DNA from: a virus
Lineage: Duplodnaviria; Heunggongvirae; Uroviricota; Caudoviricetes
Strand: one strand, 5' to 3'
Virus record (IMG/VR): IMGVR_UViG_2609460125_000009
Length of the DNA stretch: 64,000 nt
How positions within the stretch are numbered: the first letter of the stretch is position 1; every line of letters begins with the position of its first letter. The notes beneath the pieces were generated by a model. The model searched no databases. It saw only the letters and a list, made by a program, of their open reading frames with translations, and had not been told where the DNA came from. Below, piece by piece: positions 6,504 to 42,344 of this stretch. The translations under genes and the position numbers were made by a program.

Positions 6504-9500
6504 ATGTGGTACAGGGAAGGTACTATCACATTTACACAGGGCAGCAATACTCTGGTTGGGGCAGGGACAGCCTGGAACGTAACAGCTAATGGTGTGTTGC
6601 CGGGGATGATCGTCATTGGCCCCGACAATAAGCTGTATGAGATCAAGCGCGTAACCAGTGATACGAACATTGTTCTCTCAGAACCTTATACCGGCGAAAC
6701 TCAGTCTGAAGTTCCGTGCCGAATCATTACGACCTATGAAGGCGACTTAACACAGTTTAGCGCGCGCTTTACAGCACTAATGTCGCGTATGTCGGCTGAT
6801 TCCAAGTCCATGCGCAGTTGGTTGACTGCTCTGGATGAGGTGACAATCGAGCGTGAAGACGGTACAGAAGTGACCGTTAAGCCGCTAATGCAGATCGTCA
6901 ACGAGCACAACGAAAACGTTGAGTGGTATAAAAATAACACTGACGCGATTGATGCTGCTGGCGACAAAGCTCGTGAGGCGGCGGCCAGTGCTGCCGCAGC
7001 AGCAGAAAGCGCCAATATCGCTGGAGAAAAAGCCTCTCAAGCGTCTCAAAGTGCATCCGCTGCAGAGTCCTCAAAAAGCGCGGCGGCCACAAGTGCCGGT
7101 GCCGCGAAAACGTCTGAAACGAATGCTGCAGCGTCACAAAAATCTGCAGCCACTTCTGCATCCACCGCGACCACGAAGGCGTCAGAAGCTGCCACCTCAG
7201 CCCGGGATGCGGCGGCCTCAAAAGAGGCAGCGAAATCATCAGAAACGAGCGCAGCCTCGAGCGCCAGTAATGCCGCTTCCTCGGCAACGGCGGCAGGAAA
7301 TTCCGCGAAGGCGGCAAAAACGTCCGAGACGAACGCCAGGTCTTCTGAAACGGCAGCGGGACAGAGCGCCTCGGCTGCGGCAGGCTCAAAAACAGCGGCT
7401 GCGTCGTCTGCCAGTGCCGCGTCAACAAGTGCCGGGCAGGCCTCAGCCAGTGCCACCGCCGCCGGAAAATCGGCAGAAAGTGCCGCATCGTCTGCTTCAA
7501 CAGCCACAACGAAGGCTGGCGAAGCCACTGAACAGGCCAGCGCAGCAGCGAGGTCTGCTTCCGCAGCGAAGACATCCGAAACGAACGCGAAAGCGTCGGA
7601 AACCCGTGCAGAATCCTCAAAAACGGCAGCCGCATCGTCCGCCAGTTCGGCAGCGTCATCGGCATCATCTGCGTCTGCTTCAAAAGATGAGGCGACCAGA
7701 CAGGCGTCAGCAGCGAAGGGCAGCGCCACGACGGCATCCACGAAAGCAACAGAGGCGGCAGGCAGTGCGACGGCAGCATCTCAGAGCAAAACTGCTGCTG
7801 AATCCGCTGCGACCCGTGCGGAAGCTGCTGCTGATCGTGCTGAAGAGATTGCCGGTGCAGTTGCGATGGAAGACGCAAGCCTTACAACTAAAGGTGTTGT
7901 GAAACTTAGCAGTGCTGTCGACAGCACCAGTGAATCGCTGGCCGCAACGCCAAAAGCAGTTAAAGTAGTCAATGACAATGCGAACAGCAGGGTGCCATCT
8001 AACCGAAAAATTAACGGGAAAGCACTGACTGCGGATATCACATTAACGCCGAAAGATATTGGTACTTTAAATTCAATAACGATGTCTTTCTCTGGCGGGG
8101 CCGGGTGGTTCAAACTGGCTACTGTTACAATGCCACAAGCGAGTTCCATCGTTTACATCGCATTGATTGGTGGCGCTGGTTACAACGTCGGCTCCCCACA
8201 TCAGGCAGGCATTTCAGAACTGGTTCTACGAGCAGGCAATGGAAACCCCAAAGGGATTACAGGTGCTTTGTGGAAGCGTACAGCTGTCGGATTAACGAAT
8301 TTCGCCTGGATCAACACATCCGGCGATACATATGATATTTACGTTGAGATTGGCAATTATGCGACTCGTGTAAATATCCATTGGGATTGTACTGCAAATG
8401 CGACAGTTTCTATTTATACATCGCCAACATATTCAGCTAGTAAGCCTTCCAGCGTTACCGATGGTGTTGTTTATACGATGTATAGCACACATCAGAAACC
8501 GACGCCGTTAGATATTGGAGCACTGCCAACAACCGGAGGAACAGTTTCAGGTCCGTTGTCTGTTACTGGTGGGATCACCGGAACATTAAATGGTAATGCA
8601 AGTACAGCAACGAAATTGCAGACGGCAAGATCTATCGGTGGAGTTGGTTTCGACGGTTCTGCAAATATCAACCTTCCAGGTGTAAATACTACGGGTAATC
8701 AGAACACCACTGGTAATGCTGCAACTGCTACAAAACTTCAGACGGCAAGAACTATCGGCGGCGTGAGCTTTGATGGTACTGCGAATATTAATTTGCCAGG
8801 TGTTAATACGACTGGTAATCAGAATACAACGGGCAACGCGGCTACTGCTACGAAGTTGCAGACTGCGCGTACTATCAATGGGGTGTCGTTTGACGGCTCG
8901 GCAAATATTTCCTTGTCGCCAGCAAATATAGGTTGCCCGGCATCTCCTACTGGTTGGTTAACTACAGGAAGTAATGGCGGAGCAATAACAACAGCACAGT
9001 TAGTGACGTTATTGCAAAATAATGGAGCATTTAACACAAAGTCATGGATTGCTCGATGTGCTTGGGCCTATGCCAATAGTGCAACCATACCAAATAGTGA
9101 AACTGGTTGTGGCGTTATTCCATTGGCAGGAGCTGTTATAGAGGTATTTAATAACGGTAGTAGCTCAAACAATTATACGATCCGTATAACAACGGCCACA
9201 ACGACGAGTGTCTCTGGTGCTCTCACTAATGCGGAGTTTATCTATGTATTTAATGGCACAGATTATTCTCCGGGATGGCGAAGAGTATATAACACGAAAA
9301 ACAAACCAACAGCCTCTGATGTCGGTGCATTACCTCTTACCGGTGGTACATTATCTGGAGGTTTGACATCTTCTGGCGAGATCATTTCAAAATATGCAAA
9401 TGGTTTCCGCATTGCTTACGGTAGCTTTGGGTTCTTTATCCGTAATGATGGATCGAACACATATTTCATGCTAACAGCATCAGGAGACACATTAGGTTCA

Positions 9501-28063: not shown

Positions 28064-30172
28064 ATGTCTAAAAAACGTTCCATCAAAGAGGTTCAGGACT
28101 TCCGTGACAGTGTAAAACGAGTAGTCGCTCTCCTTTCAGGTAAAAACATCCCTGTTGCAGAACGAGGGGACGACGCTTATGTACGCTATAACGATGATGG
28201 AGAGCCAATTCTCGTAAACATCCCATCAATCCCGGATAACGCAACACCGGCATTGATGAATGCTGTGCGCGGATTTCTCGATCATGAGGTTGCTCACATT
28301 TTGTTTACCGATATTCGTGTGTCCAACAAAATGAGAGAAAAAGGACGCGTTCCTTCCTGGTCGCTATGGAATGCCTTAGAAGACGTGTTCATCGAGCGAA
28401 AAATGGGTCAGGTCTTTAACGGAACAAGACGTAATCTGATGGCAACTCAGCGCCTTATAATCGAAAAAGTCTTTAAACCAAAGGCTTCAGAGGCTATTGC
28501 TTATTGTGGCAAAGATCAGCGCGCGCTTTTTCTAAACTTCTTTCTCTGTCCGGTTGTAAGAGCCTGGGATGGCCAAGCACCGTTCGTAGATTTCATGGAT
28601 GAATATTGGCCTGTCATTGAGAAACCAATTTCATTATTAAAAGAACATGGTATCGATGTGGCCGTGCGTAACATGTCTTGCACCGAGGATTGTGTAAAGG
28701 TGGCTGCGACCATAGCTAAGATCCTCAAAGACACTGAAAGTGAAAGCAAAGGTAAGGAGTCAGCTCCGGGAAAAACTTCCGATCCTTCAGACGCTGACCA
28801 GACGGATGCCTCTGGAGAAAACAATGAAGACAACGAAGATCATGAGACACCCTCAGCGTTAGATAATCACAAATCTATCAAATCAGAATCACACAGTAAG
28901 CACAAACATGATAATAACGACGGTGATGATTCAGATAATTCTGAATCATCAGAAACAATATTCGATGATACAGAAAATGATAAAGAGGTATCAGATTCTG
29001 ATGCTTCTGATAACGCGGTGTCAGAATCATTTACCGCTGACCACGAAAAAAGAAAAACGACAGAAGACGGCTCTTCAGATATCCCAACTCCGTCAAAAAT
29101 GAGTCTGGAAGAGGCTTTAGAGGAGCTGGATAGCATAGAAGATGAAGTCGGAGGCATGACAGAAGATGCTCTATCCGAAACGATTAAAAGCGAGTTAACA
29201 GAAACCTCGAAAAGCGAATACAGGCCATACAATCGCTCATACGACTTCATCGGCTCGATTGATCAGGCAGAAGCCCATATCAAACGGCTTATTAAAACAT
29301 TCTCCGATATTGATTTAGGAGGATATCCAATCAGCCGCTATCGCATCGTTCCTGAAGGCAACCAGCTCTTCGACAAATATATTGAAAAGCATCTTTCGTC
29401 AGGTGTTTCGTCGACGCTGGCAAAAGACCTGGAGCGAGCAATAGCAAGCAGAAACAGAGTTCAGTTTATACCGGGCCAGCGTCGGGGGCGCATTCATGGT
29501 TCTAGTATCTACAGATTAGCAATGAATGATGATCGCGTGTTTCGTAAAAAAGAAGAATCTAAAGCCGTTAACGCCTGTGTTCAGCAAGTGATTGATTTAT
29601 CAGGTTCAATGAGTGGTATAACGATACAATTGGCTCTTGCAAGTGCATATACCATCGCCGATGCCCTTGATCGAATAAATGTTCCCAACATTATCACCGG
29701 CTTCACTACATTTGGTAGTCATATGGCGGCAGGAGAACTTAAGGCTGTCAAGTATGAGTTCTCTCGCTTTGAATCTTTAATGCTACCTATCATCAAAAAT
29801 TGGAATGAAAAGGTAAATTCTCGCGAAGTTCGCTCACGTATGGGGTGCGTAGGCTACACATTCCCACTTCTTAATAACGTGGATGGTGAAAGCATAGCCA
29901 GCCTTGCATCGTTATTTTCCGGTCGCATGGAGGACAGGAAGATCATGCTTGTTCTGAGTGATGGCGCGCCGTGGGCTGTTGGGAGAGGTTTTGACGCTCA
30001 TTTGCGTTCGGTTGCGAAGCAAATTGAAACGCAGACTGACATTGATTTGATGGCAATTGGCATCATGACTGACGCACCGGAGAGATTATACTCAAATCAT
30101 GCCCTGGTAACGAGCGTTGATAGTCTTGGTTCATCTGTAGTTACTGAACTATCTCGTATCATTTTAAAGTGA
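28064..30172 (+). CDS. von Willebrand factor A domain protein (CobT-like), with acidic central region
   Basis: C-terminal MIDAS motif DLSGSMSG; very acidic Asp/Glu/Ser-rich middle; N-terminal DHEVAH motif; followed by a MoxR/CobS-like AAA+ gene. Confidence 0.75.
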   Translation: MSKKRSIKEVQDFRDSVKRVVALLSGKNIPVAERGDDAYVRYNDDGEPILVNIPSIPDNATPALMNAVRGFLDHEVAHILFTDIRVSNKMREKGRVPSWSLWNALEDVFIERKMGQVFNGTRRNLMATQRLIIEKVFKPKASEAIAYCGKDQRALFLNFFLCPVVRAWDGQAPFVDFMDEYWPVIEKPISLLKEHGIDVAVRNMSCTEDCVKVAATIAKILKDTESESKGKESAPGKTSDPSDADQTDASGENNEDNEDHETPSALDNHKSIKSESHSKHKHDNNDGDDSDNSESSETIFDDTENDKEVSDSDASDNAVSESFTADHEKRKTTEDGSSDIPTPSKMSLEEALEELDSIEDEVGGMTEDALSETIKSELTETSKSEYRPYNRSYDFIGSIDQAEAHIKRLIKTFSDIDLGGYPISRYRIVPEGNQLFDKYIEKHLSSGVSSTLAKDLERAIASRNRVQFIPGQRRGRIHGSSIYRLAMNDDRVFRKKEESKAVNACVQQVIDLSGSMSGITIQLALASAYTIADALDRINVPNIITGFTTFGSHMAAGELKAVKYEFSRFESLMLPIIKNWNEKVNSREVRSRMGCVGYTFPLLNNVDGESIASLASLFSGRMEDRKIMLVLSDGAPWAVGRGFDAHLRSVAKQIETQTDIDLMAIGIMTDAPERLYSNHALVTSVDSLGSSVVTELSRIILK

Positions 30173-30267
30173 ACAAAACAGCCTTAACGATAAGTAACCA
30201 CTTACGATAGATAATGATATATTTATATAAGAAGTTGAACGCTCATTAGAAAACAAAGGAAAAACGC

Positions 30268-31503
30268 ATGACTACTACTGCACTGCAAAATGAAAACAAT
30301 CCTTCTGATTACCTTGTTTGCAAGTGGTGCGGAAAATCATTTCACTATTTTAAGTCCCATGTTGCCAATGGTAATTGCGAGGGCATTCCTGAGTCAGTAA
30401 AAGATGCCGATCCTGACACCGTACTGAAAATGTACACAACACAGTTTCCAGATGAGCCAACGCTATCGAAAAAGGCACTTGATGCAATTCAAGCTAAACG
30501 TGCCGAGCAAAAAAGCGAAATGGCCAAATCATCTGGCGTGACCAGTAGCCCAGGCTACACAGGCACAGTTGAGTACAAGACAGATCTGGTCGCAGCTCAC
30601 GAACTGCTAAATGTAACGGTGAAAGAACTCGGAACAAAACGTGGGACGCCGCTCATGGTTAGCGTCAACGTCAATACGCCGTTTCCAGAGTTCGTTCCAG
30701 AAGTGAAGAAGGGATACGTATATGGCGACTTCGAACTGATCAAAGACATTTTCATGATGCTTGAACTTGGCATACCTGGCTATTTGTGGGGTCATGCAGG
30801 AACAGGCAAATCGTCATTGCCTACACAACTATGTGCTTTGCTCAATCGTCCGTTGATCCGTGCCCAACATACAGCATCAATGGAAGAGGCACATGTTACG
30901 GGGCAAATTCTGGCGCGTGATGGCTCTACGTATTTCGAGCCTGGCTTGCTTGCGCTCGCAATGAAGCATGGCTGGGTTTACCTCGCGGATGAATACGACT
31001 TTGCGTTTCCACAAATTCTTGGCGTGTATCAGCCAGTGCTGGAAGGTGAAGCGTTAGTCATCAAAGAGGCGACTCCAGAATGGCGTCGCATTACTCCGCA
31101 TGAACGGTTTGCTTTCATTGGCACTGGCAACACGAACGGATCTGGTGATGAAACCGGCTTGTACCAGGGTACAAACATCCAGAACGCCGCGAACTTTTCG
31201 CGTTTTGGCATCGTTTCGAATGTGAAATACATGAGCAAAGAGGCAGAGATCAACATGTTGATAAATGCCGGTATCGTGGATGAATACGCAGAAAAGATGG
31301 TTAAGTTTGCCGGTATCGTTCGCGATGGATACGAAGAACACCTTATCAGTCAGCCAATTGGCCCTCGTGAACTTTTGTTGTCGGCCAAGATTGGAATGAT
31401 GCGAGGCGACTTTGTGACAGGTATTGAGCGTTCTTTCATTAACAAACTCCCTTCAGCTTCTGCACAAGCGGCTCGTGAAGTTGTTCAAAAAATATTTGGT
31501 TGA
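30268..31503 (+). CDS. AAA+ ATPase of the MoxR/CobS type with N-terminal Cys-rich extension
   Basis: Conserved leader AAAGGAAAAACGCATG; Walker A GHAGTGKSS, Walker B LADEYD; N-terminal CKWCG...H...C cluster. Confidence 0.8.
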   Translation: MTTTALQNENNPSDYLVCKWCGKSFHYFKSHVANGNCEGIPESVKDADPDTVLKMYTTQFPDEPTLSKKALDAIQAKRAEQKSEMAKSSGVTSSPGYTGTVEYKTDLVAAHELLNVTVKELGTKRGTPLMVSVNVNTPFPEFVPEVKKGYVYGDFELIKDIFMMLELGIPGYLWGHAGTGKSSLPTQLCALLNRPLIRAQHTASMEEAHVTGQILARDGSTYFEPGLLALAMKHGWVYLADEYDFAFPQILGVYQPVLEGEALVIKEATPEWRRITPHERFAFIGTGNTNGSGDETGLYQGTNIQNAANFSRFGIVSNVKYMSKEAEINMLINAGIVDEYAEKMVKFAGIVRDGYEEHLISQPIGPRELLLSAKIGMMRGDFVTGIERSFINKLPSASAQAAREVVQKIFG

Positions 31504-31709
31504 TCGTGCGTAAAGGATGTTTCGGCTCTCTTATCGCTGCTTCTGAAACTGGTAAGGCTTGTCTGGTGTGTCCAGACAAGCCCGATTGTCACCAATCAGC
31601 AAAAGAAGTTGCGATTTCGATGCATGGGAAGTTCGTAGGCTTCCCAAATGACAAAATCAAAAAAACCAGAAAGGTAAAAACACATGAAGGCACTGATGGT
31701 TCGAACTGA
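31500..31709 (+). CDS. hypothetical small Cys-rich protein
   Basis: 69-aa ORF overlapping the end of the AAA+ gene and the start of the polymerase gene; coding status uncertain. Confidence 0.25.
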   Translation: MIVRKGCFGSLIAASETGKACLVCPDKPDCHQSAKEVAISMHGKFVGFPNDKIKKTRKVKTHEGTDGSN

Positions 31710-34700
31710 CTTCTCACTTGGGGAGTCGGCTTTAAAAGCAGAAAACGCGGTGAAGATTGCCAGAGAAGCTGGCTACACCGCTGTAATTTCAGCAGATAGC
31801 ATGAATATTGCGAGCGTTATTCCACTACAACGTGCCGCTGGTGACGACATGGCGGTTATTTGTGGTGTGAAACTAAACATCGTTGATGATCCCACATACG
31901 AGCACCGGGCTAAACTTGCTAAAGAGTCTAAGGGATGTATGGAATCATTGGAGCGAGGACGTAACTACTCGTTTACCGCTCTAATTAAAAATGAGAAAGG
32001 ATATCGCGACATCTGCGAACTAATGACGGCGGCCAACACACGAGAACAGTTCTACTTTGTACCGCGTCTCTCGCTCGAACAGTTGGTTTCTACATATGCC
32101 AAAGGCAACATCATCCTGCTTACTTCCGACATCGGTAGCGTGTTCCAACGCAACGATTTTGCAAAAATCATAAGCACACTGATTACAGCGGGTGGAAAAG
32201 ACAACTTCTATAGTGTGGTTTATCCGCACCCTACCCCATTCTACGACCAGATTAACGTCCGGGCGATGAAAGTCGCCAGCGCATTGAAAATAGAGCCAGT
32301 GGCGTTCTATCCCGCTTATTACGAATCGATCGACGATGCAGACATTAAAGACATTGCGCACATGGTTACGAACAACATAAAAATCGACCAGCCGCATCGT
32401 CTGCGTATCCCCCACCAGCGAGATAACGCCATCAATGGTCGTCGCCATCTCCTTGAGGCGCTTAAAGCCTTCTCCGTTCGCATGGATGTGCCGGTAACAG
32501 CTGCAATGGCCTCAACAACGCAGGACTCCATTATCGATGCCTGCACATGGCGCTGGCATGAATTGCCACCAGCACTGCCCAAGATGGCAGACGACGAACC
32601 TGCAACGCTGATGAAACTGGCTGTTGCAGGGCTGCGTAAACGTCTTACCACAAAAGAGTTTGGATACACACCACCTGCTTCTGAGAACAGGGTTTATGTT
32701 GAGCGGCTAAAGTACGAAATGGACACGCTGACTCGCCTGGGATTCTGTGGTTACTTCCTGATGGTACGCGATCTGATGAATCACAGCCGTGAAACTGGCA
32801 TTCCTGTCGGGCCTGGTCGTGGTTCCTCTGCCGGTTCTCTGGTGGCGTGGTGCATAGGCATAACCAACGTCGACCCAATCCGTCACGGTCTTCTGTTTGA
32901 GCGTTTCATCAACCCTGAGCGTCTCGACTTGCCGGATGCTGACTTGGACTTCAGCCAGGCACGTCGCCATGAGGTGATCGAGTATCTGAATGAACGCTAC
33001 GGCGAAGATTACGTTGCAGGCATTCCGAACTTCACCTATCTGGGCGCGGCATCTGCGCTGCGTGACACTGCACGTATTTACGGTGTCGATGCTGCGGATA
33101 TGGCGGTATCCAAAGAGTTCAAGAATATGGAGGACGACAGCCTGTCTCTGGAAGAGCTGCGCGAGCAACTGGCCAGCCTGGACAAATACGCCACGAAAAA
33201 CCCGGAAGCGTTCAAAGCGGCGTGTAAGCTGCAAAGCCTGATGCGTGGTTTTGGTCGTCACGCTGCGGGGATGATCGTCGCTGGCGTTCCATTAGTAGAG
33301 CGCACGCCCGTCGAGCTGCGTGGCAATGCTCGATGTATTGCGTTCGATAAACGTTACTGCGAGGCGATGGGGCTGATTAAGTTGGACGTTCTCGGTCTGG
33401 CAACACTCGATCTTCTGGATAGCGCGAAACGCTACATCAAAGAGAGTACCGGTGAAGACATCAATCTCGACGCTATCCCACTGGACGATCGCAAGGTTCT
33501 GGATGGGTTCGCTGCAGGGTACACGCAGGGCGTATTCCAGCTGGAGTCCGGCCCCATGCGTAAGCTGCTTAAAGATCTGGGCGGTGGCATCGAGCCAATG
33601 AGTTTCAAAACCGTTGTCGCAACTACCGCCCTCTTCCGACCGGGACCGATTCAATCCGGCATGTTGGATGACTATGTTTCCGTTGCGAAAGGATTTATGA
33701 CGCCTACATCACTACATCCTGTCTTGGATGAACTGACCTCTGAAACAAATGGAGTGATTCTCTATCAGGAACAAACGATGAACGCAACAAGGCTTCTTGC
33801 TGGTTTCACAATGGCCGAGGCGGATGGTGTGCGTTCAGCAATCGGTAAGAAGAACATGGAAAAGATGAGGAGCATGGGTGAGAAATTTGTCATTCAGGCT
33901 CAAGCTGGGTGGATCGACGTAGAGCTTGAAAATGGCGCAATACAACGGATTCATCGCGCAGAACATTTTAAATGCGAGGACGGTACTCTGAGGACAGTTG
34001 AAGAGGCGTTGGAGCATGGAGTGAAGCTGCCAATGCCAGTTGTGCGCGTTACAACGTCACATCCAGGTCTGTCTGAGACGAAGGCAAAAGAGATATGGAC
34101 TGCATTTGAGAAAAACGGAGCCTATCAGTTCAATAAATCACACTCCGTTGCTTATTCTTTAATCAGTTATCAGTCTATGTGGCTAAAGACGCACTACCCT
34201 GCTGAGTTCTTCGCAGCTGCGCTCACCATTCTGGGCGAGGATAAGCATCAGGGGCTGGTGAAGGATGCGCTGACCTATGGCATTCGCGTATTGCCACCAG
34301 ACGTTAATGTGTCATCTAACCGAATTGAGATCCGCACACTCGAAGACGGCAGTCAGGCACTGTATGCGCCATTCTCTGCTGTGAAAGGCTGTTCTGAAAA
34401 TGGTTGTCAGGCAATTATGCGTGCGCGTGAGAAAGTTGGTGGCAAATTCGAGTCAGTGGCACAATTCGATGAAGCGGTCGAGAAGCGTGCATGTAACAGT
34501 CGTGTACGCGAGTCGCTTCATAAAGTAGGGGCTTTTGCGTCAATTGAGCCAGGCAGTCTGCCAGCAACTGATCCTGAACGACTGCGCGACCAGGCTGAGC
34601 TGATGGGCAATCTCATCATTGACGCTGTTAAAGCATCACGTCCGTTCGAAATGAATCCTAAGCGTTCTGCCGAAATCAACGTACTCATGACACGTATGGC

Positions 34701-35202
34701 GGCTGAAATGGGCTTGGGTGAGGAGTTGATACGCCCGACTATTGGTATTAAACCCAAAATCATGATCATTCTGGACAATGCGAACGGCAATGACGCTCGT
34801 ACCGGCTACTTCATGGAGAACGGATACGACGACTTTAAGGCAAAACTACTGACAGTTGGAGATCTGCGCATGGGCGATCTTTATGTCACGGGTGTTTGTA
34901 AGAAGGTTAAGGACAAAGAGAAAGACTATACCAAAGACGAGATAGGCCAGTTCACAGACTTTATGCGGGAAGAAATTAATCTTGTACGACCAACCTACAT
35001 TTTGACGTGTGGTAGTCGTTCAACCGCACTATTTAACAATAAGAGTAAACCATCAGATCTGATTGGTCGTAAGGAGTACTTCCCAGAGCTTGATGCAACC
35101 GTCTTCTACGGATTTAACCCGAATATCCTGTACTTCCGACCGGAAGAAGGAGAGCGACTGGAGGCCATTCTGGCTGATATCGCGGAGACAATAAATAAGT
35201 AA
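31684..35202 (+). CDS. dnaE: DNA polymerase III alpha-subunit-like replicative polymerase (DnaE family)
   Basis: Conserved leader AAAGGTAAAAACACATG; polymerase core motifs GRGSSAGSLVAWCIGIT and LPDADLDF; N-terminal PHP-like region with the usual histidines substituted (VRTDFS). Confidence 0.9.
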   Translation: MKALMVRTDFSLGESALKAENAVKIAREAGYTAVISADSMNIASVIPLQRAAGDDMAVICGVKLNIVDDPTYEHRAKLAKESKGCMESLERGRNYSFTALIKNEKGYRDICELMTAANTREQFYFVPRLSLEQLVSTYAKGNIILLTSDIGSVFQRNDFAKIISTLITAGGKDNFYSVVYPHPTPFYDQINVRAMKVASALKIEPVAFYPAYYESIDDADIKDIAHMVTNNIKIDQPHRLRIPHQRDNAINGRRHLLEALKAFSVRMDVPVTAAMASTTQDSIIDACTWRWHELPPALPKMADDEPATLMKLAVAGLRKRLTTKEFGYTPPASENRVYVERLKYEMDTLTRLGFCGYFLMVRDLMNHSRETGIPVGPGRGSSAGSLVAWCIGITNVDPIRHGLLFERFINPERLDLPDADLDFSQARRHEVIEYLNERYGEDYVAGIPNFTYLGAASALRDTARIYGVDAADMAVSKEFKNMEDDSLSLEELREQLASLDKYATKNPEAFKAACKLQSLMRGFGRHAAGMIVAGVPLVERTPVELRGNARCIAFDKRYCEAMGLIKLDVLGLATLDLLDSAKRYIKESTGEDINLDAIPLDDRKVLDGFAAGYTQGVFQLESGPMRKLLKDLGGGIEPMSFKTVVATTALFRPGPIQSGMLDDYVSVAKGFMTPTSLHPVLDELTSETNGVILYQEQTMNATRLLAGFTMAEADGVRSAIGKKNMEKMRSMGEKFVIQAQAGWIDVELENGAIQRIHRAEHFKCEDGTLRTVEEALEHGVKLPMPVVRVTTSHPGLSETKAKEIWTAFEKNGAYQFNKSHSVAYSLISYQSMWLKTHYPAEFFAAALTILGEDKHQGLVKDALTYGIRVLPPDVNVSSNRIEIRTLEDGSQALYAPFSAVKGCSENGCQAIMRAREKVGGKFESVAQFDEAVEKRACNSRVRESLHKVGAFASIEPGSLPATDPERLRDQAELMGNLIIDAVKASRPFEMNPKRSAEINVLMTRMAAEMGLGEELIRPTIGIKPKIMIILDNANGNDARTGYFMENGYDDFKAKLLTVGDLRMGDLYVTGVCKKVKDKEKDYTKDEIGQFTDFMREEINLVRPTYILTCGSRSTALFNNKSKPSDLIGRKEYFPELDATVFYGFNPNILYFRPEEGERLEAILADIAETINK

Positions 35203-40004: not shown

Positions 40005-42344
40005 ATGGCAAAAGGAAAATCCGCACTGGCACTTGCTCTGAAAAAGAAAATCGGTAGCAACGACGAAATTCAGAAAGTAACTCATTGGATTGACACAGGC
40101 TTTCCTCCGTTAAACAAAGCTATTTCCGGTCGTTACGATGGCGGTTTCCCATGTGGTCGTATCGTAGAAGTATTCGGGCCACCAAGCGCGGGGAAATGTG
40201 TTACCGCAGACACCATGCTGCTGACGGAGCGTGGAATGGTAACAGTGAAAGAGTTGTTTGAGATTGAAGGGTACAAAGCGACATGCACTACTCGCGATGT
40301 AGAGCATAACGTTGGACTCATCAATGAAAATGGCGTGATAGAGAAGACCTCACACCTGACATGGAACAACCGTCGCAAATTCAAGCGTATTAAGCTGGCA
40401 TCAGGCGGTTATATCGAGGCTACGTTCCGTCACCCAATCCGTGTGGTTGACGACTTAGGTAATGTCGTCTGGCGACATGCTGAAAAAATCAGTGTAGGCG
40501 ACACGATTCCTTCAATGGTTGGCACACATCAATTCGGCGATCAGCACCTGGATGCCAATATCGCAAAACTGATGGGCTATTTAATTGCTGACGGATACGT
40601 GGCCTCTGAAAATTCAGTGAATTTTTCTAACACAGATCCTTTCATCAAGGATGAGTACTACCGCCTCATTTCGCTGGTATCAGACAAGATGCCAGTTACG
40701 AGAAAACATAACGGCTCGGAAGACCATGTGCTGTTTAGCAAAGAGGTGCGTTCGCTGCTTTTTAAAGAATATGGTCTGGAGTATGAGAAAGCTGCTGGCA
40801 AGCAGGTTCCGTTGAGTGTGCGTCGCGCCAATAGCGAGGCTCAAATTGCATTCCTTCGCGGCTACTTTGAGCTGGAATGCCACGTCAATGATGGTCGCTG
40901 CATTGAGGTTGTGAGCGCGAGTGGGCTGCTGCTACAGCAAATTCGCCTCATGCTCCTGAATCTGGGGATTACGTCAACTATCTCTGAAAAACACGTCGCG
41001 GGTTATGAAAATACATATTACCGGCTGTCATTCAGTGGCTCTAATTACGACCTTTTTCTGTCAACGATTGGTTTCGAATCTCCGGCACGTTTATCAGTGG
41101 CAACCAAACGGGACATTGGTTTTGACCGCACTTACTCAGGCTATGTTCCGCACATCAGCGGCTTAGTGAAATCACTCTACGAGTCGCTCACCAAGACCAC
41201 CCGTGAAGACTACGCTCTGGTAGACCACGTTATTGGCCGCGGCGATCGTGTCGGAATAGACAAACTGCGAGAAATCTATGTCTCCTTCATTGGCAGAAAG
41301 AATCGTTTTAACGAGCATCTGTTTGCACAACTGGCAGCGGTAATTGGCTCTAACTTGTTCTACGACGAAGTCGTGGCTATTGAGGAAGGTGAAGCACCAA
41401 CGTTCGACGTAGCGATGCCGGAAACACACTCTTTCTGGTCTAACGGGATTATCAGCCACAACACATTCCTTGCAACAGCAGCGATGATCTCCGCTCAAAA
41501 ACAAGATGGTCTGGCGGTATTCCTCGATCATGAAAACAGTTTTGACGTTGGCCTGGCTGTAGCCAATGGCCTGAACGCAGATGAGGATGACGGTCAGTGG
41601 GTATACAAGCAGCCAGATACCTTCGAAGACTCTGTAGAGTTGATCGGCACAATACTTAAATTGGTTCGTGATGAAGAGCTTATCCCCGAATCAGCACCTA
41701 TCTGTATCGTGGCTGACTCTCTTGCGTCTATGGTTCCGAACTCCAAAGCCGAGAAGTTCGAAAAGATGGCTGAAGGCACAGCCAAAGACAAAGATCAGCT
41801 AAACATGAACGACAATACGGCACTGGCTCGTGCGACGAGTGCGAACTTCCCTACTCTGGCTTTGTGGGCACGCAAATACAACGCCTGCATCATCTTCTTG
41901 AATCAGGTTCGCACAAAAATCGGTGTAATGTTTGGCGACCCTACTACGTCGCCAGGTGGAGATTCACCGAAGTTCTACGCTTCTGTACGTATCCGTCTTG
42001 GTGCATCGGTGATGAAGGATGGTAAAGAGAAGATCGGCCAGGACGTAGGCGCAGAATGCATCAAAAACAAAGTTGCACCACCGTATGGCAAATGCACCTG
42101 GAAATTCTACTTCGATCCTACTCGTGGCCTCGACGTTATCGAGTCGCTCGTCGAGTACATGCTGGAAGAAGGATACCTGCCAAAGAACGCCAGCGGTCGA
42201 GTAGAAATTGGTGACAAGAAATACACCAAATCACAGATCGTCGAGATGTATCGGGAGAAGCCACTAGCTGAAATCATTGCGGCTTTACAGGCAATCGACG
42301 ACCGGAGATCAAAAGACAATCCCACCGAGTCAGTAGAAGAGTAA
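40005..42344 (+). CDS. RecA-family recombinase precursor containing an intein in the Walker A motif
   Basis: N-extein ends GPPSAGK, C-extein begins TFLATAA, so splicing restores GPPSAGKTFLA; the C-extein carries RecA-like core motifs. Confidence 0.85.
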   Translation: MAKGKSALALALKKKIGSNDEIQKVTHWIDTGFPPLNKAISGRYDGGFPCGRIVEVFGPPSAGKCVTADTMLLTERGMVTVKELFEIEGYKATCTTRDVEHNVGLINENGVIEKTSHLTWNNRRKFKRIKLASGGYIEATFRHPIRVVDDLGNVVWRHAEKISVGDTIPSMVGTHQFGDQHLDANIAKLMGYLIADGYVASENSVNFSNTDPFIKDEYYRLISLVSDKMPVTRKHNGSEDHVLFSKEVRSLLFKEYGLEYEKAAGKQVPLSVRRANSEAQIAFLRGYFELECHVNDGRCIEVVSASGLLLQQIRLMLLNLGITSTISEKHVAGYENTYYRLSFSGSNYDLFLSTIGFESPARLSVATKRDIGFDRTYSGYVPHISGLVKSLYESLTKTTREDYALVDHVIGRGDRVGIDKLREIYVSFIGRKNRFNEHLFAQLAAVIGSNLFYDEVVAIEEGEAPTFDVAMPETHSFWSNGIISHNTFLATAAMISAQKQDGLAVFLDHENSFDVGLAVANGLNADEDDGQWVYKQPDTFEDSVELIGTILKLVRDEELIPESAPICIVADSLASMVPNSKAEKFEKMAEGTAKDKDQLNMNDNTALARATSANFPTLALWARKYNACIIFLNQVRTKIGVMFGDPTTSPGGDSPKFYASVRIRLGASVMKDGKEKIGQDVGAECIKNKVAPPYGKCTWKFYFDPTRGLDVIESLVEYMLEEGYLPKNASGRVEIGDKKYTKSQIVEMYREKPLAEIIAALQAIDDRRSKDNPTESVEE
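40197..41462 (+). mobile_element. intein with LAGLIDADG homing-endonuclease domain (422 aa) inside the recombinase gene
   Basis: Begins with Cys (CVTADTMLL, intein block A), ends with His-Asn before the extein Thr; internal LMGYLIADGY and FLRGYFELE motifs. Confidence 0.8.

Follow-up and report, generated by a model that had tools for sequence, protein, structure and literature searches.

What do two genes named after cobalamin biosynthesis do in a phage of Escherichia coli? The question is raised by a 64,000-nucleotide stretch of tailed-phage DNA (Caudoviricetes; IMG/VR record IMGVR_UViG_2609460125_000009; "the window" below means this whole stretch), in which a CobT-like vWA protein of 702 aa (28064-30172, + strand) is followed by a CobS-like AAA+ ATPase of 411 aa (30268-31503, + strand). 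An earlier note, made from the sequence alone, had described this two-gene cassette at 28064-31503, and the list of open reading frames (ORFs) contains both at these coordinates and lengths. The region of the pair is 99.4% identical to Escherichia phage Cyrano (OV696614) and the whole window about 99%, and other SSU5-type E. coli phage-plasmids are 98% identical to the window. Virome studies as a rule list cobS and cobT among the 'auxiliary metabolic genes' for vitamin B12; both belong to the core gene set of marine cyanomyophages, and they are found on hundreds of clinical Enterobacterales phage-plasmids. Very probably, we conclude, the pair joins a MoxR-type motor to a vWA adaptor, likely with proteolytic activity, and does not serve as a cobalt chelatase in E. 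coli. As a tentative proposal, it neutralises or clears host proteins that attack or block the DNA of the element, with type I restriction complexes as the best-supported candidate.

Architecture of the adaptor and the motor

The two proteins divide into the following parts, given with the evidence for each.

28064..30172, + strand: CobT-like adaptor, 702 aa (Pfam CobT and CobT_C; phrog_1576, E 3e-299; PDB 9uka_G)
28064..28738, + strand: N-domain of the adaptor (aa 1-225), homologous to CobT_N (PF06213 match, residues 9-294; 1,125 clusters match)
28283..28297, + strand: HEVAH (aa 74-78), the HExxH zinc-binding/catalytic motif (127/127 full-length representatives)
28379..28396, + strand: EDVFIE (aa 106-111), candidate third zinc ligand (ED..[IV]E in 126/127, ED..NE in 1)
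28739..29263, + strand: acidic, Ser/Thr-rich low-complexity linker (aa 226-400; composition, net charge -35)
29459..29578, + strand: aa 466-505, matching the CobT 'shaft' in alignments with Shinella CobT and PDB 9uka_G
29537..30169, + strand: vWA domain (aa 492-702) with its MIDAS (an adhesion site that depends on a metal ion) (CobT_C, E 6e-82; D511-x-S-x-S515, T548/T549, D633)
30268..31503, + strand: CobS-like MoxR-class AAA+ ATPase, 411 aa (AAA_5; phrog_249, E 2e-106; PDB CobS 9ujv, E 2e-25)
30307..30525, + strand: Ros/MucR-type zinc-finger module (aa 14-86), predicted ligands C18, C21, H31 and C37 (conservation, ROS_MUCR, Ros87, hhalign)
30526..30567, + strand: flexible linker (aa 87-100) from the finger to the AAA+ body (predicted local distance difference test score, pLDDT, below 50 at 90-99; length varies in the alignment)
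30568..31500, + strand: AAA+ large and small subdomains (aa 101-411; invariant motif columns; secondary structure of the model)

Chance ORFs are ruled out for the pair by these E-values and by the more than 1,600 homologs found for each of the two proteins. A search of plasmid records gave 2,287 matches. Such a pair is less unusual than the earlier note had implied, as a large phage family is already described (phrog_249 and phrog_1576; cobST genes of cyanophages and archaeal viruses).

The first protein had been described as a CobT-like vWA protein with a MIDAS motif and a highly acidic spacer, and this description is borne out. Pfam CobT (PF06213) matches residues 9-294 (E 5e-26), the CobT_C vWA family matches residues 492-701 (E 6e-82), and CobT chain 9uka_G of the PDB aligns to residues 440-697 (E 3e-16). 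The MIDAS corresponds to D511-L-S-G-S515, a DxSxS motif, together with GFTT at 546-549 and SDGAP at 632-636, and DxSGS is present in 124 of the 127 full-length representatives. Within the linker, 51 acidic (D+E) and 16 basic (K+R) residues give the net charge of -35, and the family median for acidity is 47 D+E per 100 aa.

The N-domain was searched exhaustively against 1.84 billion cluster representatives, of which 1,125 clusters matched, and all motif counts refer to the 127 full-length proteins among the best 150 matches, at 50% clustering. In each of the 127 an ED-type motif lies 28-38 residues past the start of HExxH (in the window adaptor, EDVFIE begins about 29 residues after the start of HEVAH), and this combination of HExxH with a conserved acidic motif downstream, the candidate third ligand, is the signature of zincins. 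At the corresponding site the true CobT proteins read GDSMALRK (Shinella) and GDADALALRE (Cupriavidus), the histidines being lost in both. Set against this loss, the retention of HExxH in all representatives and of ED..[IV]E in all but one makes it likely, as far as sequence can tell, that the phage N-domain is a live peptidase. From the Pfam CobT homology and the published CobT_N structure we infer a zincin/M48-like fold; CobT_N was not recovered from the PDB by phmmer or by a profile search with the adaptor N-domain, the sequences being too diverged. The N-domain profile also gave a weak match (E 0.006) to the anti-CRISPR protein AcrIIA26 (PDB 9zq6_B) at residues ~94-142 (window 28340-28490), spanning the N..ED.FIE...G motif, which is probably due to chance but is worth recording given the counter-defence hypothesis.

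Of the checks suggested in the earlier note, profile searches were run for both proteins and a structure prediction for the ATPase, with Pfam CobT/CobT_C recovered for the vWA protein and AAA_5 for the ATPase. The AAA_5 domain lies at residues 173-293 (E 2e-15), with Walker A (GHAGTGKS) at 175-182, Walker B at 236-242 and an H2-insert hairpin at 212-225, and the Walker A/B and H2-insert motif columns are invariant in an alignment of 82 sequences. The AlphaFold2 model computed from this alignment (mean pLDDT 88.9) has three parts, an N-terminal module (~11-80, pLDDT ~95), a disordered tether (87-100) and the AAA+ body. Its best Foldseek matches were NorQ, from NorQ-NorD vWA complexes, and CbbQ (E 2e-15, target TM 0.85-0.88), so that the predicted fold, like the AAA_5 match, the Walker motifs and the H2-insert hairpin, is that of the MoxR class.

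A CobS/MoxR-like AAA+ protein with an N-terminal CxxC...H...C module, of a kind that bacterial CobS does not have, was also part of the earlier description, and on both counts we agree. The window sequence reads C18-x2-C21-x9-H31-x5-C37, and Brucella CobS (328 aa) and Shinella CobS align only to residues 141-411. Among the sequences compared, the finger is absent from bacterial CobS, from cyanophage CobS and from Vcrx089, the homologous ATPase of IncC plasmids. The module is common to more than 100 homologs, with the family consensus KIxCxxCGxxxHxIxxHLKxxHP...Y...FPDAPxLS and the ligand spacing C-x2-C-x9-H-x4-H. Across the 82 aligned homologs C18 never varies, and conservation of C21, H26 and H31 is 90% or higher; the SSU5 clade has a small insert, and Cys37 replaces the last histidine.

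Several comparisons relate this module to the Ros/MucR finger. Pfam ROS_MUCR (PF05443) was the recurrent best match in 6 of 10 diverse modules (best score 25.5 bits, gathering score 25.4), and the window module on its own gave no match to it. A profile of 44 modules had Ros87 (2jsp) as its top match in the PDB (E 5e-4), and hhalign of the module profile with six annotated MucR proteins gave a probability of 93.4% (E 2.6e-7) and an alignment in which the ligands and the Tyr line up. A Cys-to-Asp variation at the second ligand occurs both in MucR proteins and in phage members. The structural match of the modelled finger to the Ros87 fold was not significant. On the ligand pattern and the sequence homology, which both agree with Ros/MucR, we assign the extension as a predicted Ros/MucR-type zinc finger. 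No paper describing a fusion of such a finger to an ATPase was found in the literature, and both the assignment and the non-basic character of the module (see below) appear to be new within the literature searched. In Pseudomonas phage phiK7B1 the annotated start of the ATPase gene (L008 9001-10248), at 9118, cuts off a finger that is encoded in frame from ~9001, and is probably wrong.

The cobalamin explanation

The homology to CobS and CobT could mean that the two proteins are genuine cobaltochelatase subunits, which would hijack the CobN of the host to boost cobalamin supply, and a cobalamin-supply hypothesis for viral cobST has been published by Liu et al. 2021 (PMC8651126). Structures of CobSTN have solved a motor-shaft mechanism, in which the CobS ring grips the 'shaft' preceding the CobT vWA domain and CobN contacts CobT near the MIDAS site, and the window adaptor retains both shaft and MIDAS. 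In the bacterial enzyme CobT_N has an M48C peptidase-like fold and docks on the small AAA+ subdomain, and the acidic linker of CobT is ~90 aa long and disordered (preprint 10.64898/2026.07.21.739949).

Against this explanation, the scores fall 6-10 fold under the equivalog cut-offs: 84.8 bits for the ATPase with CobS TIGR01650 (cut-off 558.55) and 69.6 bits for the vWA protein with CobT TIGR01651 (cut-off 759.05), the latter over the C-terminal part only. Neither CobN nor any B12-dependent enzyme is found among the 126 annotated features of the Cyrano genome (the host genome was not searched directly), and the ribonucleotide reductase of Cyrano is of class Ia, with alpha and beta subunits. To our knowledge, the aerobic corrin pathway is absent from E. 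coli. In E. coli, heterologous cobNST has to be supplied, and the cobalt-inserting enzyme of Salmonella is CbiK. Chelation has no use for the conserved HExxH or for the zinc finger, which true CobT and CobS do not have, and homologs of the pair occur on IncC plasmids whose hosts have no CobN. We therefore give the chelatase explanation hardly any credence.

The Cyrano record (OV696614 CYRAN_47-48) labels the two products 'dimethylbenzimidazole phosphoribosyltransferase' and 'cobalamin synthetase', which is a misannotation by name collision with the unrelated CobT and CobS of Salmonella; 'porphyrin biosynthesis protein' is the name used in other records. We argue that B12 is the wrong label here, in this lineage, because of the conserved HExxH motif, of which sampled true CobT proteins are devoid, because of the zinc finger and the lack of CobN, and because of the constant DNA-metabolism neighbourhood and the anti-restriction phenotype of the IncC homolog, which are described below.

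Neighbourhood and candidate clients

The earlier note had placed the pair between the immunity region and the polymerase, and the flanking genes agree with this.

26017-27120, + strand: integrase, upstream flank
27115-27501, - strand: helix-turn-helix (HTH) repressor, upstream flank
27753-27965: 70-aa ORF, between the repressor and the CobT-like gene
31500..31709, + strand: small 4-Cys ORF, 69 aa, GCFGS...C-x2-C-x5-C (phrog_6337, E 2e-45; its TTG start overlaps the TGA stop of the ATPase)
31684-35202, + strand: DnaE-type Pol III alpha, downstream flank

We compared 11 loci of the zinc-finger subfamily, namely the window, eight metagenomic or genomic contigs, Pseudomonas phage phiK7B1 and Rhizobium phage RHph_N2_6, with ATPase identities down to ~35%. 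In all of them the CobT-like gene lies directly upstream of the ATPase gene, often with a divergent HTH gene before it, an adjacency expected of a vWA-MIDAS adaptor of MoxR systems. The downstream order is the same throughout (11/11): an optional sigma-70-like gene, the small 4-Cys ORF, DnaE and gp32, followed by a 5'-3' exonuclease in 10 of the 11 loci, wherever the sequence reaches that far, and then by RecA in several. In the T4-like cyanophage S-PM2 the pair ('Peptidase' and CobS) is located between gp46/47 and gp45/44/62, near gp43, and on IncC plasmids the Vcrx089 ATPase gene adjoins ssb-bet-exo, with a 598-aa CobT-like vWA protein encoded five genes on. Both halves thus recur on three kinds of mobile element among replication and recombination genes, whatever the replisome type.

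In the window, a terminator scan gave no + strand terminator-like site at ~27.4-34.5 kb, a stretch that begins upstream of the pair and ends far into DnaE, as would fit a single transcription unit leading from the repressor-proximal region into DnaE. By eye, a GC-rich inverted repeat (CTGCGCGAA ... TTCGCGCAG) was spotted at 27981-28011 (+ strand), between the 70-aa ORF and the start of the CobT-like gene; it is not followed by a T-run, is not in the list of the terminator scan, and could be an RNA processing or attenuation element.

The adjacency to DnaE, gp32 and the exonuclease in the sampled relatives, and to replication and recombination genes also in S-PM2 and IncC, would also suit an accessory chaperone that assembles, metallates or recycles the element's own DNA machinery. 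By analogy with NorQD, CoxDE and CbbQO, its clients might be the PHP domain of DnaE, which the window DnaE carries, the di-iron class Ia ribonucleotide reductase, or SSB/recombinase filaments, and MoxR-vWA systems are classically metal-insertion or reactivation chaperones. However, the polymerase neighbour varies, being DnaE here, T4-type gp43 in cyanophages and none in IncC, which leaves no single shared replisome client; in addition, a universally conserved HExxH is unexpected in a pure chaperone, and the sole measured phenotype of a homolog is anti-restriction. In our view such a chaperone role is rather unlikely.

Another role known for MoxR-vWA pairs is in virion assembly, which was shown for Acidianus two-tailed virus and proposed for the group 2.2 jumbo phages by Iyer et al. 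2021 (PMC7824862), who recognised there the same architecture, a MoxR-vWA pair with an N-terminal metallopeptidase. A combined assembly chaperone and processing protease would make good use of HExxH in maturation cleavage, but all loci examined have the pair in their early/replication region and not in the structural module. In the Cyrano record the structural genes occupy 0.1-26.5 kb and the pair 43-46.6 kb, and IncC plasmids and SXT/R391 elements carry both halves and build no virions, so we consider this role improbable.

The link to anti-restriction comes from IncC plasmids. Deletion of vcrx089-090 lowered transfer into Vibrio cholerae carrying a type I restriction-modification (R-M) system 25-fold, and the defect was rescued by deletion of hsdR or by expression of the genes in the recipient (Roy et al. 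2020, PMC7498323). In pKAZ3 the same deletion raised restriction by EcoBI 424-fold and by EcoKI 906-fold (Dimitriu et al. 2024, PMC11602122). Vcrx089 and the window ATPase share 30% identity over 285 aa (E 1e-27), and the IncC vWA protein aligns with the window adaptor over its full length (E 2e-23), passes the Pfam CobT gathering score and carries HEAAH and NVLEDCRIE. In the IncC plasmid pC12 (L016 6121-9279) a DUF3150 gene precedes the CobT-like vWA/peptidase gene, and a number of small ORFs and a ferredoxin gene (yfaE-like, 'class I RNR maintenance') come after it.

The earlier note had held that the role of such pairs in phage biology is not established, and the literature indeed yielded hypotheses only. 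The analysis shows the domain architecture, the intact motifs and their conservation across the family, the synteny and the lack of an annotated CobN; from these parts we infer how the machine might work, including the formation of a complex, proteolysis, the client and when the genes are expressed. By homology with CobS-CobT and NorQ-NorD, six copies of the ATPase would assemble into an AAA+ ring to grip the 'shaft' of the vWA protein and pull on it. The vWA protein in turn would use its MIDAS site to hold a client, and the N-domain with its zincin motif (HExxH...EDxxIE) would probably cleave that client. The tethered Ros/MucR-type finger may add a recruitment or recognition module, for which a protein target is likelier than DNA. 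Probably transcribed together with replication and recombination genes from the repressor-adjacent region, the machine would act soon after entry or induction, and its most likely task would be to deal with a protein that endangers the element's DNA or stands in its way, by removing, remodelling or destroying it. Host type I R-M complexes are the candidate class of client.

A number of observations weigh against this proposal. The window ATPase is no closer to Vcrx089 (98.6 bits) than to true CobS (115 bits), and tblastn (E <= 1) found no homolog of Vcrx090 in the window. The IncC vWA gene is outside the five genes flagged by transposon sequencing (PMC7498323), and the anti-restriction phenotype may therefore not involve the vWA/peptidase half. 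Nor is proteolysis indispensable everywhere, since the adaptor of phiK7B1 (L008 6847-8931), the one phage exception seen and a natural peptidase-dead variant, has SEISK in place of HExxH and yet keeps both the MIDAS and the pair. Among the PADLOC models the vWA protein gave only a marginal match to DrmE (E 0.004) and the ATPase none. The finger has a net charge of -1 in the window and a median of 0 among 44 members; for six MucR DNA-binding domains the values run from +3 to +12. As the basic surface and tail are lacking, a function as DNA-binding element or DNA tether is unsupported. As the phage modules are not basic, we do not claim DNA binding, and a role in protein recognition is at least as likely. 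Finally, the synteny may be conserved because a whole replication module has descended from a common ancestor, and not because the genes are functionally coupled.

A wider and more doubtful generalisation takes the peptidase-vWA and MoxR pair for a protease with which mobile DNA in general (phages, phage-plasmids, integrative and conjugative elements and conjugative plasmids) counters defence or clears roadblocks; cellular CobST would then be a domesticated, peptidase-dead offshoot of it. Such a protease would use ATP to extract, and then cleave, host proteins on incoming or replicating DNA, clearing the way for the products of the neighbouring SSB, exonuclease and recombinase genes, with the zinc finger as a lineage-specific client-recognition module. 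If true, this would explain why cobS is a core gene of cyanomyophages. Should the alternative to the metabolic label hold, a metabolic name would be concealing an entire class of machines, driven by ATP, for anti-defence or DNA establishment. Earlier work had already described the phage cobST pairs (Liu et al. 2021, and as core genes of cyanophages) as well as the architecture of peptidase-vWA and MoxR (Iyer et al. 2021). Within the literature searched, what appears to be new is the family-wide retention of HExxH as against its loss in two sampled true CobT proteins, the presence of both homologous halves of the pair in the IncC hde region, and the consistency of the DNA-metabolism neighbourhood. 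The main value of the analysis is that it corrects a widespread metabolic annotation, with a hypothesis that is testable in a tractable coliphage.

Some of the neighbouring genes deserve description. The end of the small 4-Cys ORF overlaps the start of DnaE, and the ORF is apparently translationally coupled to the ATPase; we regard it as a putative member of the machine only. A small ORF is found between the ATPase and DnaE in all sampled relatives; the five that were aligned (L002, L005, L007, phiK7B1 and RHph_N2_6) share the 4-Cys motif and are 167-184 aa long, and relative to these the window ORF keeps the Cys-rich N-terminus only. It has no Pfam match, and its Cys spacing recalls WhiB-like Fe-S proteins or zinc-binding anti-sigma proteins. 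In 5 of 11 relatives the ATPase and the 4-Cys ORF have a gene resembling sigma-70 region 2 between them; the window and the SSU5 clade have none, which suggests that in some lineages the early block also encodes transcription factors. These genes are positioned as follows:

L002, 9182-9856: sigma-70 region-2-like gene
L009, 10209-10844: sigma-70 region-2-like gene
L023, 8185-8832: sigma-70 region-2-like gene
L024, 8254-8877: sigma-70 region-2-like gene
L026, 3579-4238: sigma-70 region-2-like gene

In most relatives the DnaE-type polymerase has a C-terminal domain of the uracil-DNA glycosylase (UDG) family (PF03167); the window DnaE gave no Pfam match at E <= 0.001 past residue 955, that is, over its ~215 C-terminal residues. 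An intein (Intein_splicing, ~73-486) with a LAGLIDADG homing endonuclease inside it (279-356) interrupts the RecA gene of the window (40005-42344, + strand, 779 aa), and the RecA core matches at 484-703.

Comparison with known systems

The hde locus of IncC and SXT/R391 elements (Vcrx089 with AAA_5 and CbbQ_C, Vcrx090, ssb, bet, exo, DUF3150 and vWA) shares with the window a homologous ATPase and a full-length homolog of the adaptor, embedded among SSB, recombinase and exonuclease genes. It differs in that its ATPase has 322 aa and no zinc finger and the two halves are separated by five genes, and the anti-restriction unit that was tested consists of Vcrx089 and Vcrx090, the latter without a counterpart in the window. 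The MoxR-vWA-metallopeptidase pairs of other phages (the cobST of cyanophages, archaeal tailed viruses and group 2.2 jumbo phages) have in common with the window pair the two-gene cassette, the gene order, the HExxH motif (HEVGH in S-PM2), a position among replication and recombination genes and an ATPase of phrog_249. In contrast, cyanophage CobS (373 aa, ~29% identity) has an unrelated N-terminal region of ~110 aa in place of the Ros/MucR finger, and the cyanophage pair stands in the context of a T4-type replisome and not of DnaE.

NorQ-NorD, CbbQ-CbbO and related systems provide the best structural matches to the ATPase model and follow the same logic of motor, adaptor and effector, but their adaptors are devoid of the zincin domain and their clients are metabolic enzymes (nitric oxide reductase cNOR and Rubisco), none of which is encoded near the phage pair. 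For the finger, Ros/MucR proteins (PF05443; Ros87, 2jsp) show the same C-x2-C-x9-H-x4/5-H/C pattern followed by Y...P..P, and the same Cys-to-Asp variation at the second ligand, whereas the phage module is fused to an AAA+ ATPase, and not to an oligomerisation domain, and is without the basic residues and the tail.

In domain organisation the phage pair resembles CobNST (Brucella 9ujv and 9uka), with its AAA+ motor bearing an H2-insert hairpin and its adaptor composed of N-domain, acidic disordered linker, shaft and vWA-MIDAS domain, the homology extending over ATPase residues 141-411 (E 2e-25) and the vWA half (E 3e-16). The phage pair differs from it in having no CobN partner and equivalog scores that are far too low, in an adaptor that retains the HExxH lost in the two sampled true CobT proteins, and in an ATPase to which a zinc-finger module of ~85 aa and a tether are added.

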